Source of the DNA: Candidatus Babelota bacterium
GTDB lineage: Bacteria; Babelota; Babeliae; Babelales; JACPOV01
DNA length: 64,000 nt
Direction: 5' to 3'
Assembly (NCBI GenBank): GCA_016191325.1
Contig: JACPOV010000008.1
Location: 509,270-573,269 of the forward strand
In this document: positions 977 to 56,421 of the stretch, one piece after another
Layout of the letters: every line of letters starts with the position of its first letter
How positions within the stretch are numbered: position 1 is the first letter of the stretch
The notes under the pieces: model-generated
What the model saw: the letters and a program-made list of their open reading frames with translations, nothing else
The model's database searches: none
What the model was told of the DNA's origin: nothing
Position numbers and translations under genes: made by a program

Positions 977-1579
977 TTAATGATAACTAAAATAGTCAAA
1001 AACAAAACTCTTTAATCCAGCAACTGCACCAATTCCGATGCACGCGATCCGGAAAGAATCAGCATATTCTAAACATCTAATTTCTCTTGGATGATGAGTG
1101 ATTTGGAGTTGCTCTCCAATATAAATAACTGAAACTGTATTTTTCCCGTTATTAACAGTTTTAGTAATACCCACAGTCACCGTCTTTCCTTCATCGCCCT
1201 GCAATTCAATTTTGTCTTTTATAAACTTACCTAAGAAGGTATTTTTTTCAAAAACAACAAAGTTATTATTAGTTTTTCCTAGACCTTGATGCCAGTCGTC
1301 ACTTGTCTCTATTTTTTTATTTATTAAATTAACAAGCACTTCTTTTGTTATCACCTCTGATTTCACTGGATTCATTCTGTTGTAGCGATCAAGTCTTTTC
1401 TTTTCAAAATCATGAATAAAACAACGTGCAAGAAAGCCGCCCCCCATCAAAGTCAATCCTGCAATACCAAGTTTATGATTTGCCAGCCACGAAGCTGCAG
1501 AAGAAAGCATTGTCGTTTGTTGATGCTCAGCGTGCGCTAAAATTGAGATTGAAAGTAAAAAAAATATACCTTTTTTCAT
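977..1579 (-). CDS. hypothetical exported protein with C-terminal hydrophobic tail
   Basis: 200-aa ORF. Signal peptide MKKGIFFLLSISILAHA. C-terminal ACIGIGAVAGLKSFVF segment. Confidence 0.6.
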   Translation of the reverse strand: MKKGIFFLLSISILAHAEHQQTTMLSSAASWLANHKLGIAGLTLMGGGFLARCFIHDFEKKRLDRYNRMNPVKSEVITKEVLVNLINKKIETSDDWHQGLGKTNNNFVVFEKNTFLGKFIKDKIELQGDEGKTVTVGITKTVNNGKNTVSVIYIGEQLQITHHPREIRCLEYADSFRIACIGIGAVAGLKSFVFDYFSYH

Positions 1580-51498: not shown

Positions 51499-51978
51499 CT
51501 ATTCAAGTAATGCTATTTCATCGCGCGATTCGCGAAGAAATTCAAGGTCCATGCGCATTTCTTCAAATCGTTTACTAAAAATAGAAATATCTTCTCCGGT
51601 ACAGTCTTTAATTTTCTGGCACACCAGACGATATTTATTTGCAAGTACCGTAACCATTCGCATTAAGTAAATCGTGTCTTCTGGTAAAAAAGAGGCCGCT
51701 TCAGGGCAATTAAAAACCATACGCTTCACTTCATGAACTAATTGCTCAAGATTTTTCTTTAATAGTGGAATTTTTTCCGCTAGTTGTTCAAACGGTTCAT
51801 GCGTTAAATAAAGATCAAGATCGCTCCATACGCTTTTGCAGATAGCCTCAATATGGTAAAATTGGCTGTAGGGATAAAGATATTCGGTTGAAACGGCAAC
51901 CATATCGGTAAACGGGTACTCAGCAGCGCTCAATTGAAAAAAAAGAAGAAAAAGTACTATTGATTTCAGGTGTTTCAT
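51499..51978 (-). CDS. hypothetical secreted protein
   Basis: ATG at 51978 with a GGAG RBS. Signal MKHLKSIVLFLLFFQLSAA. Confidence 0.55.
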   Translation of the reverse strand: MKHLKSIVLFLLFFQLSAAEYPFTDMVAVSTEYLYPYSQFYHIEAICKSVWSDLDLYLTHEPFEQLAEKIPLLKKNLEQLVHEVKRMVFNCPEAASFLPEDTIYLMRMVTVLANKYRLVCQKIKDCTGEDISIFSKRFEEMRMDLEFLRESRDEIALLE

Positions 51979-52115
51979 GTTCAGACTCCACTTAACCTCA
52001 AATGTTGCCTCATCATCTCCAGAATGCATTATTTATTTTCTAATTGTCAATTAAAAATAAATAGAAGCTCCTAGATGAGCGGCTTTCACACAAAAAAAGA
52101 CGGCGAAATAATTAT

Positions 52116-52715
52116 TTATGGAGTAAGGGCAATAAAAACCCGCGATGAGAACGCTCTAAACTCTTGGTATGCTATAAAACAACAGCCAAAAAAAGCGGCA
52201 GTTTTAACGTAACCAGAAACAATATAATATGGCCGAGAGCATTCATTCTTATAGAGGCCTCCAAGATCCGGCACCGACCGGCTCACTTTATGCAAGGCTC
52301 TCATATCTGTATTAAGTGGAGACCTGGGGCCAATGAGCTTAGGCCATCCAGTTAAACCGTGGCCGATACTTTCCATGTACGCCGCATTATTTCTCTGTCT
52401 GTCGGCTGGTACTTGTAAAAATTGATCTCGAACTCGATGATATAGGAAATTTGTTTCTAAAGCATAGGTCGCGTAAATTTGTTTTGAACTTTGTTTGTAT
52501 ACTTTCCGTAGACGGTAAATTTCTACATCGCTGCCAATAACTAAATTTCCTTGAGAAAGCCGCATAAGATAATCAACCGTTTTTTGAATCTGCACTGGCT
52601 CTTGAGAAAAGAAATTTTCCCAGGGAACGATAATTGAAGATTTATCGTCCATGCAACGTATATCGTTGTATGACGTTAAAACAATTATAATTAAAAAAAT
52701 AAGGCCACTATTCAT
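52116..52715 (-). CDS. hypothetical exported protein with C-terminal hydrophobic segment
   Basis: 199 aa. N-terminal MNSGLIFLIIIVLTSY. C-terminal VKTAAFFGCCFIAY. Confidence 0.55.
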   Translation of the reverse strand: MNSGLIFLIIIVLTSYNDIRCMDDKSSIIVPWENFFSQEPVQIQKTVDYLMRLSQGNLVIGSDVEIYRLRKVYKQSSKQIYATYALETNFLYHRVRDQFLQVPADRQRNNAAYMESIGHGLTGWPKLIGPRSPLNTDMRALHKVSRSVPDLGGLYKNECSRPYYIVSGYVKTAAFFGCCFIAYQEFRAFSSRVFIALTP

Positions 52716-52718
52716 AAA

Positions 52719-53225
52719 TTATTTCAAATTACTCAAAGTTACCATTGCTCCACCAATAGCACCGACTATTAAACTGCAAAAAGCTGTCGTATTGGGTACT
52801 GTGGCGCAGTGCTTTACCTTCCAATCAAATAATTTTTTTTCGTCATCATTAGTTTGCTCGACCGAACATTCGTAGATGTCATCTATTAGATATCCATTGA
52901 ATCGCACATCAAAAAACCAACCGTTTTTTATAAATCGAATGTTAGCGATAGTTCCATTTTTTTCTAAGTTACATGCTTCTAGTACCCTATCGCACTCTCG
53001 TTGATTAGATTTTGATTGCCCGAGAGCATGCGTTATTTCATAGTAACTTTTGAACTCTTTGTTTATTTCTTTTTCAAATTTTTTTGGAGTATAGGTGCGT
53101 AGGATTTTTAATTTTTTATCGAAATCATCAGCCCAAGTCACGCTTTTAGGTTTTTTTTCCATGGGAAAAATTGCATGTGTAGTTGATACTATCAATAATA
53201 TAAGAATTATGGTGCAGCTTTTCAT
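52719..53225 (-). CDS. hypothetical exported protein with C-terminal anchor
   Basis: ATG at 53225 with a GAGGA RBS. Signal MKSCTIILILLIVSTTHA. C-terminal AFCSLIVGAIGGAMVTL. Confidence 0.55.
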   Translation of the reverse strand: MKSCTIILILLIVSTTHAIFPMEKKPKSVTWADDFDKKLKILRTYTPKKFEKEINKEFKSYYEITHALGQSKSNQRECDRVLEACNLEKNGTIANIRFIKNGWFFDVRFNGYLIDDIYECSVEQTNDDEKKLFDWKVKHCATVPNTTAFCSLIVGAIGGAMVTLSNLK

Positions 53226-53226
53226 C

Positions 53227-53658
53227 TTAGTCCTCGAGCTCTTGATTTTTTTTGCGTTTCTTTTCATCAGGCTCAGCCAGTTCTTCATCTTGGCAACGCT
53301 TCAAACAAACTTTATGCACAATAGTGCCGTCTTTTTTTATGTTGAACATAATTTTTTTGCCTGATGCTTCCATATCGCAAACCTTATGCGTAGGATCAAA
53401 TCCAAAGAGCTTGAGCAACTCTCCCGTCTCTCTCTTTTTTTTAAAGAGCACCCCAGTCGAGAGGTTCAATACTGTAGAAAATTGTTCATCGGGTGTTGAT
53501 AAACGAAATTCTTCTGCCTGCGTCCGCAAATAACGCGGGTTACTCCTTACTTCTGCTACTTTGGCCCATGAAACGCGCTTTTTTTGCTTTGCTTGCTCCA
53601 TTCCTGAGAGCTGAAACGAAATTACTACCCACCCCAATAATGCATGCATTAGATTCAT
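53227..53658 (-). CDS. hypothetical exported basic protein
   Basis: ATG at 53658 (AGGGA RBS), because the upstream GTG start lies inside a terminator hairpin. N-terminus MNLMHALLGWVVISFQLSG. Lys-rich acidic tail. Confidence 0.5.
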   Translation of the reverse strand: MNLMHALLGWVVISFQLSGMEQAKQKKRVSWAKVAEVRSNPRYLRTQAEEFRLSTPDEQFSTVLNLSTGVLFKKKRETGELLKLFGFDPTHKVCDMEASGKKIMFNIKKDGTIVHKVCLKRCQDEELAEPDEKKRKKNQELED

Positions 53659-53710
53659 TGCGTGATCCCTAAAATAGTTCGTCCATAAGAATGAATAGTA
53701 TAACGCAAGA

Positions 53711-53741
53711 AATAAAAAAGGTGGCGTTAAAGCCACCTTTT
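53711..53741 (-). terminator. rho-independent terminator of 53780..54229
   Basis: Perfect 9-bp stem AAAGGTGGC-gttaaa-GCCACCTTT, with a T-run on the minus strand. Confidence 0.65.
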
Positions 53742-53779
53742 AAAATAAAGACTTATTTTTTGCCAATCAAACTAACGAA

Positions 53780-54229
53780 TCATATTTTAGCTGAACCAGA
53801 AGAGAAATATGAGTACAATCCAAATAAAGCAGAAATGATAATTGCTGTTTTAAAAATTCTAGAATAGCAAAACTCTGGGGATGTACCATCTATTAAAAAA
53901 TCACCTGTTATATTTTTTGTGTTTTTATCTACAGAAATCCCAAATGTATAGGTTCGCAAATAATCACGAATCCAACCGCGCTTATGCTCAATTAAAATTT
54001 TAACAGTATTTATTACCCCATTGTCTCCGAATGAATCTTCGGTTATTTCGCTGGAGATAACCTTGCATTGCTCATTATAATTCGTTGCAAATGCTTCACC
54101 ATCTTTTAGGTTTGCTAACTCATTAAACCGATTTGCACGCCTTGTTAATTCATTCACATCTACCGCGCTTGATATACCGGTGAATAAACACAGATTAAAA
54201 GCAAGCAAACTATTAATAAATTTCGCCAT
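53780..54229 (-). CDS. hypothetical exported protein with C-terminal anchor
   Basis: 149 aa. Signal MAKFINSLLAFNLCLFTGISSA. C-terminal TAIIISALFGLYSYF. Confidence 0.55.
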   Translation of the reverse strand: MAKFINSLLAFNLCLFTGISSAVDVNELTRRANRFNELANLKDGEAFATNYNEQCKVISSEITEDSFGDNGVINTVKILIEHKRGWIRDYLRTYTFGISVDKNTKNITGDFLIDGTSPEFCYSRIFKTAIIISALFGLYSYFSSGSAKI

Positions 54230-54416
54230 AATAAACCTCCATTTCTATAGCTAATTCAATATCTATTTATAATTATATACAAATTGAATTTAATTACAAC
54301 CTAGGGGTTATTTATAGCTACCTATAAAATTTGGATCCCTTGCAGATCCAGAAAAAATCTATATAATCAAAACTATAAATATGCATAATTGAAAATAATA
54401 AAAACAGGGAAATCTT

Positions 54417-54872
54417 ATGAAACATGTAGCAATTATAGCCACGTTGGCTTTGATCTTTAGTGCTTTTAACCCAATAACTGCACAGCCTTTAAAAGATACT
54501 TTTATACAAACAACTTACAATCTAAGCAATAACCCAGCAGCAACAGGTTTTGTTTCTCTCGTATCGTTAGCAGCTTTCTTTTATAGCTCCAAAAAAGCTA
54601 ACGATGCTAGCTGGCTATATGGTCATTGCAATACTCTTCTTACCGGGACAGATCAGCAAATTAAAGATGGAGTTCGACAGATTTTCGCAATGGCTCCAAA
54701 TCACCCACTAGCTGATGGAGAAGACACCGTCAGTTCGTATATTGAAAATACACAAAAAGCGCGAACAATGCACAGGAATTCGATTATAGCTTGGTCTCTG
54801 GCTGGTGGCGCTAGCCTTGGCCTTTCATTTGCTGCTGGCCATCTAGCATTACGATCATTATTTAATAAATAG
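54417..54872 (+). CDS. SLFNK-tail small membrane protein, array copy 1
   Basis: 151 aa. Signal peptide, a central hydrophobic segment (TGFVSLVSLAAFFY), and a conserved C-terminus IAWSLAGGASLGLSFAAGHLALRSLFNK. Confidence 0.65.
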   Translation: MKHVAIIATLALIFSAFNPITAQPLKDTFIQTTYNLSNNPAATGFVSLVSLAAFFYSSKKANDASWLYGHCNTLLTGTDQQIKDGVRQIFAMAPNHPLADGEDTVSSYIENTQKARTMHRNSIIAWSLAGGASLGLSFAAGHLALRSLFNK

Positions 54873-54880
54873 AGGATTTT

Positions 54881-55333
54881 ATGAAATACAGAATAAATAA
54901 ATTTTTAGTACTTTTACTTTTTATGGCGTCTACTTCAATGATGGCAAACGAACCAGGAAAGTTTAGATATATTCAGAATTTTTTAAATAATAAGTCAGGT
55001 ATGAATGCTACTGCTTCTCTGGTTTCAGGGCTTGGCAGTCTTTGTTGCTTTAAAATTGCACATAACGCATATATAAAATATAAAGAAAATGAATTTCTTT
55101 TGAACTCTGACACAGAACAAGGCACAAAAGACAGTGTTAGACGTATATTAACACAAATAAATATGGAGCCTGCTGACGTAGACGATGATGTAAGTACATA
55201 TGTTCCTGATCTTCGTGCCGGAATGATAAAAAATAGAAACAAAGTGATTGCTTGGTCTCTCGTTGGTGCCACTAGCTTTACTATTTCAGCTCTCACAGGT
55301 TATTTGACGTTCAAATCATTATTTAATAAATAG
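54881..55333 (+). CDS. SLFNK-tail small membrane protein, array copy 2
   Basis: 150 aa. C-terminus IAWSLVGATSFTISALTGYLTFKSLFNK. 8 nt after copy 1. Confidence 0.65.
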   Translation: MKYRINKFLVLLLFMASTSMMANEPGKFRYIQNFLNNKSGMNATASLVSGLGSLCCFKIAHNAYIKYKENEFLLNSDTEQGTKDSVRRILTQINMEPADVDDDVSTYVPDLRAGMIKNRNKVIAWSLVGATSFTISALTGYLTFKSLFNK

Positions 55334-55340
55334 GGATTTT

Positions 55341-55808
55341 ATGAGATACAGAATCCTTCATGCAGTTTTATTTCTTGTCGCAGCGAGCTCAATGGTTACC
55401 AATGCCCACGGTCAGGATTTTTTAAACTTTAAAAATAAACTAGATACAATCGCTGATCCCTCTTATGCCGGCTTTGCAAGTTATTTTTTCCCAATCTTCA
55501 CCGCTGGTACTTTTTATAGCTTCTACAAAGCTCTTACTGCTTAAGGACTATATAAAAATTATAAGAACAGTCCAGTGAATTCGCTTCCAAACGATCAAGC
55601 AAGAAATCGCGTTAGGCGAATAGCAACAAACCTCAATTATGTCGCAGCAGACATCGATCATCATGTGTCTACTCTTATACCGGAGACTAAAGACAGAATA
55701 AAATCTAACAGAAATTTGATGGTAGCTTGGTCGTTAGCTGGTGCGGGAAGTTTAACGCTTTCGGCAATTACTGGCTATTTGACGCTCAAATCACTTTTTA
55801 ATAAATAG
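55341..55808 (+). pseudogene. SLFNK-tail family, array copy 3, interrupted by one in-frame TAA
   Basis: ORFs 55341..55544 and 55575..55808 are in the same frame. A single TAA at 55542-55544 separates them. Both halves align with the paralogues, and the C-terminus is VAWSLAGAGSLTLSAITGYLTLKSLFNK. Confidence 0.6.
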
Positions 55809-55816
55809 AAGATTTT

Positions 55817-56263
55817 ATGAAATACAGAATGCTTTATGCAATTTTATTTTCTTTTCTTGCCTCCAATTTAACAATTAGTCAGCCACTCAGAGGCAGCTTG
55901 ATACAAAATCTCCAAACTTTAAGCAATAATCCATCAGTAACCGGTTTCATTGCTCTCGCTTCATTTGGTGCTTCACAGTATTGTTTCCATCAAGGGAAGA
56001 TGCACTCTTTGGAATTTGCGAGACTTTCACTTCTGCTTAATCATGGGATCGAGCCCAAAAAAATTGTTTACGTTTCAGATGCACCAGGTGGCCAAGTACT
56101 TACTGGACCGGTGACTGACTCAGGAGGCGCCGTGGGCTCATCAACCCCAAAGCTTAAAAAACATAGTAATTTACAGATGGCATGGTGTCTAGCTGGTATC
56201 ACAAATTTTACTATTTCAGGTATTGCTGGGTACTTAACACTCAGATCGTTATTTAATAAATAA
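55817..56263 (+). CDS. SLFNK-tail small membrane protein, array copy 4
   Basis: 148 aa. C-terminus MAWCLAGITNFTISGIAGYLTLRSLFNK. Confidence 0.65.
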   Translation: MKYRMLYAILFSFLASNLTISQPLRGSLIQNLQTLSNNPSVTGFIALASFGASQYCFHQGKMHSLEFARLSLLLNHGIEPKKIVYVSDAPGGQVLTGPVTDSGGAVGSSTPKLKKHSNLQMAWCLAGITNFTISGIAGYLTLRSLFNK

Positions 56264-56284
56264 AATATCTTAGAAAAAATGAGA

Positions 56285-56310
56285 AAAGCGGCTTTTTTAG
56301 GGCCGCTTTT
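56285..56310 (+). terminator. rho-independent terminator of the SLFNK array
   Basis: AAAGCGGC-ttttttagg-GCCGCTTT stem followed by T residues. Confidence 0.55.
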
Positions 56311-56331
56311 AAAATTACTGATTTGAAAATT

Positions 56332-56394
56332 GGCCCGCTGCCACGGCATGACTTTGTCACCCAGTGGGGCTTTTAAATGGGGCCCCCATAGCCA
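56332..56394. repeat. composite GC-rich intergenic repeat carrying both motif families
   Basis: CGGCATGACTTTGTCA (56344-56359) is the reverse complement of the 51357-51372 core. TGGGGCCCCCATAGCC (56379-56394) is the reverse complement of 2833-2848. Confidence 0.6.
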
Positions 56395-56421
56395 CGACGA
56401 AGTTCGTGCAAATGGGGTAAC

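Follow-up and report, generated by a model that had tools for sequence, protein, structure and literature searches.

Four old tandem paralogues form an undescribed family of small, predicted membrane proteins in a Babeliales (Dependentiae) bacterium

A run of four small genes whose products all end in the residues SLFNK raises the question of whether these genes form a real protein family and, if so, what their products may do for the bacterium that carries them. The array lies at positions 54417-56263 of the window, by which we mean the whole 64,000-nucleotide stretch of DNA that was analysed (C2:509270-573269 of assembly G000). The genome is 1.27 Mb in size, 98.9% complete and has 39% guanine plus cytosine (GC), and its nearest MnmA relatives among 185,000 species genomes are Candidatus Dependentiae/Babeliales metagenome-assembled genomes. 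Dependentiae are a phylum of obligate intracellular parasites of protists.

The four copies form a genuine paralogous, coding family. In the table-11 listing of open reading frames (ORFs) and in the raw sequence, they appear as co-directional, head-to-tail paralogues on the + strand:

54417..54872, + strand: copy 1, 151 amino acids, intact, tail RSLFNK
Within copy 1: signal peptide at about residues 1-22 (ITA↓QP), hydrophobic stretch at about residues 40-58, polar helical region, C-terminal helix at residues 123-145
54881..55333, + strand: copy 2, 150 amino acids, intact, tail KSLFNK
55341..55808, + strand: copy 3, 155 codons, broken by an in-frame TAA at 55542-55544
55817..56263, + strand: copy 4, 148 amino acids, intact, tail RSLFNK, stop codon TAA

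Both the four tandem ORFs with their common SLFNK ending and the shared architecture, put forward in a preliminary description of this DNA, were borne out: each copy has an N-terminal segment resembling a signal peptide, a hydrophobic segment in the middle and a conserved C-terminal helix. Amino-acid identity among the copies is 31-37% (34-37% to copy 1) in end-to-end alignments of the translations, and pairwise BLASTP gives E values in an overall range of about 1e-17 to 1e-19 (6e-19 for copies 1 and 4, 8e-17 for copies 2 and 4). The residues invariant across the copies are A125, W126, L128, G130, S137, G141, L143 and S147-K151. All four copies end in SLFNK, and no other ORF of at least 60 amino acids in the genome ends in it or in a close variant; as the profile, too, finds only family members, we rejected the idea of a general C-terminal sorting tag of the PEP-CTERM or GlyGly-CTERM type.

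An in-frame TAA interrupts copy 3 and leaves three intact copies, so that the earlier count of four intact genes of 148-155 codons stands for copies 1, 2 and 4. The TAA cuts copy 3 into ORFs of 67 and 77 amino acids, at a position where the other three copies have Ser, Tyr and Ser. Apart from this codon the frame is intact, collinear with the other copies and without further lesions, and the C-terminal regions of copies 2 and 3 are the best-conserved pair (73% identity; ratio of non-synonymous to synonymous change, dN/dS, 0.13), so the stop looks recent and copy 3 is a probable pseudogene, inactivated recently. Reading the TAA as a sense codon is not plausible, because TAA is the commonest stop in this genome. 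The same TAA is present in Logan contig L015, from a separately built assembly of run SRR12113392, which possibly derives from the same sample as the genome and so is not independent confirmation. Over 12.5 kb the Logan contig and the window differ by a single base outside the array, at window position 53835 (A versus C), within an orphan gene of 149 amino acids described below.

The family is undescribed, lacks recognisable relatives in curated libraries and is essentially confined to one species. No match in Pfam, NCBIfam, PHROGs or PADLOC was better than E 0.016, and none was common to more than one member; PADLOC gave only one chance-level match, to Cas12c (E 0.016, one member), and Pfam gave no match to the array proteins even at E up to 1. 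With the profile, hmmsearch of PDB sequences reached a best E of 0.14, Foldseek against the PDB returned only generic helical bundles (best E 0.25), and neither tblastn against phage records nor a search of Rfam gave a match. The preliminary description had not recognised the family, and profile libraries, PDB sequences and Foldseek agree with it in this.

A word-indexed search of 5.8 billion protein clusters, with profiles of four and six sequences, returned only proteins of the same genome and one other, P0007. An exhaustive HMMER pass over 1.84 billion representatives likewise gave P0007 as the one credible outside homologue (E 2.7e-4 against the whole library); its second match, a cadherin-repeat protein, was spurious and matched 'AVTWSLVGG'. 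P0007 is a protein of 160 amino acids from a Joint Genome Institute (JGI) metagenome (3300047160) that aligns with the family over its full length. When the four-copy profile was aligned to it with hhalign, the probability was 96% (E 6e-9, 136 columns), and both the NP-capped mid segment and the tail ...ISVITGYLSIKNAFK were matched. The P0007 gene adjoins lon and two genes for TLC ATP/ADP translocases, neighbours that place P0007, too, in an energy parasite. Absence of the family outside this assembly, together with lack of expression, had been named beforehand as grounds for dismissing it; on the side of presence, which was checked, this one metagenomic protein is found outside.

Within the genome, the profile extended with P0007 detected a weak fifth member of 134 amino acids at C2:890496-890900 (E 2e-6 in the genome; hhalign probability 77%, N-terminal half only). 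Further iteration within the genome found nothing beyond it, and the other small membrane proteins of the island in which it lies were not drawn in. Six-frame searches of entire genomes, first for 41 relatives and later for 261 members of the order or phylum, this genome included, found the family in none of the 260 others; the few weak matches fall, on inspection, in non-coding or unrelated frames. Pattern scans of genome contigs, JGI metagenome contigs and viral contigs also found no members. We therefore describe the family as collinear proteins of ~130-160 amino acids with a leader, an (N/H/D)P-capped mid hydrophobic segment, a helical loop, a helix of the form W...G...S...G(Y/H/F)L and a short basic tail. 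All of these features are found in P0007 and in the four copies of the array, and C2:890496-890900 matches mainly in its N-terminal half.

How old is the array, and what keeps its copies alike? By region, identity among the copies is 18-48% in the leader, 21-47% in the N-terminal segment with the first hydrophobic stretch, 12-34% in the middle and 52-73% in the last 33 residues; the middle of copy 4 is Gly/Pro/Ser-rich and the most divergent of the copies (12-21% identity). The middle is thus not uniquely variable, as had been thought, since divergence is about as high in the signal peptide and in the N-terminal half, and only the last ~33 residues stand out. Between array copies the proportion of synonymous differences (pS) is 0.55-0.98, that is, saturated, whereas orthologues of G000 and G001 have a synonymous divergence (dS) of 0.50-0.63 (Nei-Gojobori). 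G001 is a sister species in the same genus, syntenic from grpE through mnmA, with SSB 99% and MnmA 94% identical. The duplications therefore predate the split between the two species.

In the C-terminal region pS is 0.54-0.66 and dN/dS 0.13-0.37. As synonymous sites are saturated there too, the conserved C-terminal helix reflects purifying selection at the protein level and not recent homogenisation, and gene conversion across the conserved C-terminus is ruled out. The proposal that unequal crossing-over or gene conversion keeps the ends of the genes alike thus had to be given up, the more so because the tract shared at the junctions, ~40 nucleotides, is too short. Diversifying selection, which had also been proposed, finds no support in dN/dS, which is at most about 1 wherever computable among the copies and, at such saturation, cannot reveal it.

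Conservation at the DNA level is limited to this stop-spacer-start junction of ~40 nucleotides. The element TAATAAATAG / RRGATTTT / ATGARATACAGAAT, in the order stop, Shine-Dalgarno-like spacer and start, is found at all three internal junctions:

54855..54894, + strand: junction 1, TCATTATTTAATAAATAG-AGGATTTT-ATGAAATACAGAAT (stop, Shine-Dalgarno-like spacer, start)
55316..55354, + strand: junction 2, same stop-spacer-start element, 7-nucleotide spacer GGATTTT
55791..55830, + strand: junction 3, same stop-spacer-start element, spacer AAGATTTT

The spacers between successive copies are thus 8, 7 and 8 nucleotides long, so that the conservation of the junctions in DNA holds at all three, as first described, and the uniform 8-nucleotide spacing does not. 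The near-identity of the ~40 nucleotides at each junction (TCATTATTTAATAAATAG, RRGATTTT, ATGARATACAGAAT) exceeds the expectation from codon usage. All three junctions share the rare choices TAG (16% of stops), TAC (23% of Tyr codons) and AGA (17% of Arg codons). At third codon positions, identity reaches 0.83 over the final 6 codons, as against 0.48 over the 27 upstream of those. The start of copy 1 and the stop of copy 4, which are not internal junctions, deviate from the junction sequence. Because the tract is so short and embedded in saturated sequence, we favour a constraint on the junction itself, namely translational coupling, over conversion; the junction is probably a stop/Shine-Dalgarno/start cassette that couples translation of successive copies.

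Two elements flank the genes:

54230..54416, no strand assigned: divergent intergenic region of 187 nucleotides, from the 149-amino-acid gene (-) to copy 1 (+), presumed promoter region of the array
56284..56310, no strand assigned: intrinsic-terminator-like hairpin AAAAGCGGCUUU-UUU-AGGGCCGCUUUU, between copy 4 (+) and ssb (-), closing the four-gene unit

The hairpin after copy 4 has a folding energy of -16.3 kcal/mol (z = -3.3 versus shuffles). Because of this hairpin, and as there is no internal terminator among the four genes, the four look like one operon. A consensus scan of 54230..54416 found no convincing sigma-70-type site on the + strand. The same region contains an inverted repeat, GGATC-CCTTGCA-GATCC (GGATC-N7-GATCC, ~54333-54350), which could be an operator or a terminator-like element of the - strand. 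A further hairpin, at 53716-53741, resembles the one at 56284-56310 (AAAAGGTGGC...GCCACCTTTT and AAAAGCGGC...GCCGCTTTT); both have the shape of bidirectional terminators, and together they flank a segment specific to G000.

What might the proteins do? The reading that we favour, and to which we give about an even chance, is that the array is an accessory, fast-turnover operon of Sec-exported small membrane proteins that form hairpins, ordinary for Dependentiae. The divergent upstream region, the four genes with their 7-8-nucleotide Shine-Dalgarno spacers and the one terminator would make up one transcription unit, carrying old tandem paralogues of an orphan family restricted to a lineage of the Babeliales. 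A cleavable signal peptide would lead each product to Sec for export or insertion. The mature, all-helical protein of ~130 amino acids would then sit in the membrane as a helical hairpin, in which a short amphipathic helix at the N-terminus stays outside, the membrane is crossed by a first helix of weak hydrophobicity, a helical loop of ~60 amino acids lies on the cytoplasmic, K/R-rich side, and the C-terminal helix returns to leave the tail (K/R)SLFNK outside. The C-terminal helix would likely serve as anchor and oligomerisation module, a role that would account for strong purifying selection being confined to it.

Several features of the sequences are consistent with this arrangement. The leader has a basic n-region, a strongly hydrophobic h-region and small residues at -3/-1, with putative cleavage sites ITA↓Q, MMA↓N, TNA↓H and TIS↓Q in the copies and VNA↓E in P0007 (signal peptides were read by rule). 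An AlphaFold2 (AF2) model of copy 1, built on six sequences, is all-helical, with helices at residues 2-17 (the leader), 23-37, 40-74, 79-92 and 102-149. In the 12-residue flanks of the two hydrophobic segments, which are separated by a loop of 58-74 amino acids, there are 34 K/R on the loop side versus 18 on the outer side, with the same direction in all six members. Every member has 3-5 K/R before the C-terminal helix versus 1-2 in the tail, and K, KK or KKAR directly follows the mid segment in five of the six. The C-terminal helix is bracketed by the aromatic W126 and by Y/H142, and its invariant small residues G130, S137 and G141 lie on the would-be packing face. By the positive-inside rule, the K/R bias favours a hairpin with N-terminus out, loop in and tail out over a single-pass, type I protein. 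The middle thus most probably lies in the cytoplasm, within a two-helix membrane hairpin, although we would put this at roughly even chances. This differs from the variable exposed region between conserved anchors proposed at first, since only the C-terminal anchor is conserved and the K/R pattern places the middle on the cytoplasmic side.

A number of points weigh against the hairpin operon. The AF2 model is of moderate confidence and built on six sequences only (mean predicted local distance difference test score, pLDDT, 74; predicted template modelling score, pTM, 0.54). Summed simply over 19 residues, the Hessa scale marks the C-terminal helix as marginal, with +5.0 in the fifth member and +2.6 to +3.7 in P0007 and the four copies, and shows the mid segment (+4.1 to +7.9) to be worse than nearly all real transmembrane helices; the reference, 54 helices taken from genuine polytopic proteins encoded in this genome, has a median of +0.65 (interquartile range -1.0 to +2.3). 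As both segments are marginally hydrophobic, the mid segment may not span the membrane and the protein may not stay in the inner membrane. The positive-inside argument, moreover, presupposes that the proteins insert into the inner membrane of the bacterium, a coupling role for the junction is read from sequence alone, and the selection estimates come from saturated comparisons between paralogues only, the family consisting of one genome and one metagenomic protein.

The weakness of the mid segment would be accounted for if the proteins were of type I, spanning the membrane once, in line with the exposed region first proposed. In that case a helical head of ~100 amino acids would lie in the periplasm or at the surface, with the mid segment in its core, the C-terminal helix would span the membrane, (K/R)SLFNK would be a cytoplasmic stop-transfer tail, and the head would be diversifying. 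The two basic residues of the tail are those of a cytoplasmic tail, and ~50 other small proteins of the genome have the layout of a signal peptide plus C-terminal helix. However, both the excess of K/R before the C-terminal helix over the tail and the basic residues directly after the mid segment point rather to a cytoplasmic loop, residues 40-74 form a single uninterrupted long helix in the AF2 model, and the head shows no excess of non-synonymous change; we regard a type I topology as possible but rather unlikely. Marginal hydrophobicity of both segments would also suit proteins that escape SecYEG stop-transfer altogether, leave the cell by a secretin-dependent route or in outer-membrane vesicles, and insert through a tail-anchor-like C-terminus into the vacuole or the mitochondrial outer membrane of the host, to act there as anchor, adaptor or small pore. 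The end of the SLFNK proteins, where a short basic tail comes after a C-terminal helix of moderate hydrophobicity, is similar to tail-anchor signals in eukaryotes. The genome carries two secretins, while the type III marker FHIPEP (SctV/FlhA) is absent from it and the type IV marker VirB4 (PF03135) is absent from the 98.9%-complete genome in a search to which control genomes responded. An accessory distribution with fast turnover is typical of effectors; Dependentiae export many orphan proteins, and Chromulinavorax destructans sheds vesicles in food vacuoles, its export being attributed to Sec, and remodels the host mitochondrion (PMC6561590). Against release stand the fact that type II substrates are normally soluble folded proteins, the failure to find similarity to a known effector or pore former (best Foldseek E 0.25) and a K/R pattern that already fits simple insertion into the inner membrane, so that we consider release improbable. 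In its most far-reaching form this idea would make the SLFNK proteins new effectors, dependent on Sec and independent of injection systems, whose marginal, small-residue-rich helices pass the inner membrane, leave by secretin or vesicle and self-insert like tail anchors into the membrane of a host organelle or vacuole; there the C-terminal helix would oligomerise, and the tandem copies would offer variant heads. This we would call a long shot.

Tandem, diverged small membrane proteins within a variable island also bring to mind immunity or defence, with the copies protecting against a membrane-acting toxin or a phage in the manner of tandem 'orphan immunity' arrays. Yet the neighbouring genes, ssb and those for orphan exported proteins, include nothing toxin-like, PADLOC is without a match save the chance-level one to Cas12c, no relatives were found in phages or viral contigs, and a cleavable signal peptide is unusual for immunity proteins, all of which makes such a role very improbable. 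We give equally little credence to the array being a decaying remnant that is losing its function. The in-frame TAA in copy 3, which would then be dead, and the absence of the segment from G001, where it would have been deleted, are what decay predicts, but three copies have stayed full-length despite saturated synonymous divergence, dN/dS in the C-terminal region is low, the junction signals are intact, and the lack of further lesions in copy 3 makes its stop recent.

The accessory character of the favoured hairpin operon is suggested by the history of the locus. The pieces that distinguish G000 from its sister species are:

~53750..56375, no strand assigned: G000-specific segment of ~2.6 kb with the 149-amino-acid gene and the array; ~45 nucleotides instead at the syntenic locus of G001
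53780..54229, - strand: orphan gene of 149 amino acids with signal peptide and C-terminal hydrophobic helix, divergent from the array and absent with it from G001

In G001 the orthologue of a 169-amino-acid gene directly precedes ssb. In the distant congeners G003 and G004, a single signal-peptide protein of 574/576 amino acids, which looks WD40-like by eye, lies between the orthologue of a conserved 176-amino-acid gene and ssb (L024 8748-10472, L025 1446-3176). As the content of the interval from the 176-amino-acid gene to ssb differs among G000, G001, G003 and G004, this interval is a replacement hot-spot for exported proteins. The operon would thus occupy a slot whose content is replaced between close relatives, and would belong to a large, fast-turnover set of signal-peptide orphan proteins that are thought to serve dealings with the host. 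The segment was either deleted in G001 or imported into G000 as an already-diversified array. A role at the host interface, as an accessory, is plausible: of the surface or host-interface family first suggested, the patchy presence in a hypervariable island of exported proteins fits, and the topology with an exposed middle does not.

The right edge of the segment is marked by structured repeats rich in GC, of the form GGGGCCCC ... short hairpin ... (G)TGGGG (window 56340-56420, compared with L023 10585-10630). G000 appears to have two adjacent copies and G001 one, which puts the boundary of the indel at a dispersed repeat. Left of the array, window 51499-54229 (-) encodes five small orphan exported proteins, four of which have G001 orthologues; the fifth is the 149-amino-acid protein, which found only itself among the 5.8 billion clusters. 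For the four, identity between G000 and G001 falls towards the array (91, 70, 63 and 52%), whereas flanking housekeeping proteins are 84-99% identical.

In a crude screen, ~50 small ORFs of the genome join a signal-like N-terminus to a C-terminal hydrophobic helix, most of them singletons. Among them are one dispersed two-member cluster and two other three-copy tandem families, one at C2:507909-510848 (window 977-1579 and just upstream; 193-200 amino acids, with a leader, an early hydrophobic segment and a C-terminal helix) and one at C2:87334-90087. The second island, at C2:889690-897032 (L005 is its first part), has at least eight small genes for products of 98-154 amino acids with a leader and one or two hydrophobic helices. 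Apart from C2:890496-890900, the weak SLFNK relative, these genes are without detectable mutual relationship.

Several per cent of this genome consists of genes for small exported proteins that carry a C-terminal helix, and the array bears on the question of how Dependentiae, lacking type III, IV and VI systems, deliver proteins to their hosts. With a constrained helix on a free-running body and presence or absence between sister species, it could serve as a compact test case for where proteins of this sort finally localise. Pilins of the VirB2/TrbC/TraA type have a cleavable leader, two hydrophobic helices, both ends outside and a basic cytoplasmic loop of ~10 amino acids, and tandem virB2 paralogues are found in Anaplasmataceae. 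The SLFNK proteins share with them the leader and two hydrophobic helices, the predicted placement of both ends outside, the basic loop and the small, tandem, diverged copies. However, their loop of 58-74 amino acids and the absence of the VirB4 ATPase from the genome rule out a type IV secretion pilin, and Pfam gives no match. ElaB, YqjD and YgaM (DUF883) are C-tail-anchored inner-membrane proteins without a signal peptide or second hydrophobic segment; the array proteins resemble them in having a helical soluble part followed by a Gly/Ala-rich C-terminal helix that runs from near a Trp to basic residues, and differ in possessing both a signal peptide and a second hydrophobic segment, and in the lack of a Pfam match. 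Chlamydial Inc proteins, which are secreted by type III systems and have a presumed role at the host interface, possess a bilobed hydrophobic domain whose loop is very short. Like them, the SLFNK proteins are small membrane proteins made by an intracellular bacterium, evolve fast, are specific to a lineage and have a pair of hydrophobic segments, but these segments are ~60 amino acids apart, the leader is of the Sec type and the genome is without FHIPEP, so that they fall outside the Inc class.

A further parallel is a set of proteins in the same phylum. In C. destructans, signal peptides are found on 44% of coding sequences, among which ORFans are over-represented (Deeg et al. 2019, PMC6561590). 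The SLFNK proteins agree with this class in taxon, in a Sec-type leader (by our rule-based reading), in the lack of any recognisable domain, in their lineage-restricted distribution and in an inferred role between parasite and host, and their array likewise sits among other signal-peptide ORFan genes. Dependentiae ORFans are, however, a descriptive class and not a homologous family, and neither this family nor its C-terminal helix or tandem organisation appears in that work (PMC6561590). On present evidence, the SLFNK array is one more lineage-specific orphan family of this exported class, and not a new kind of system.

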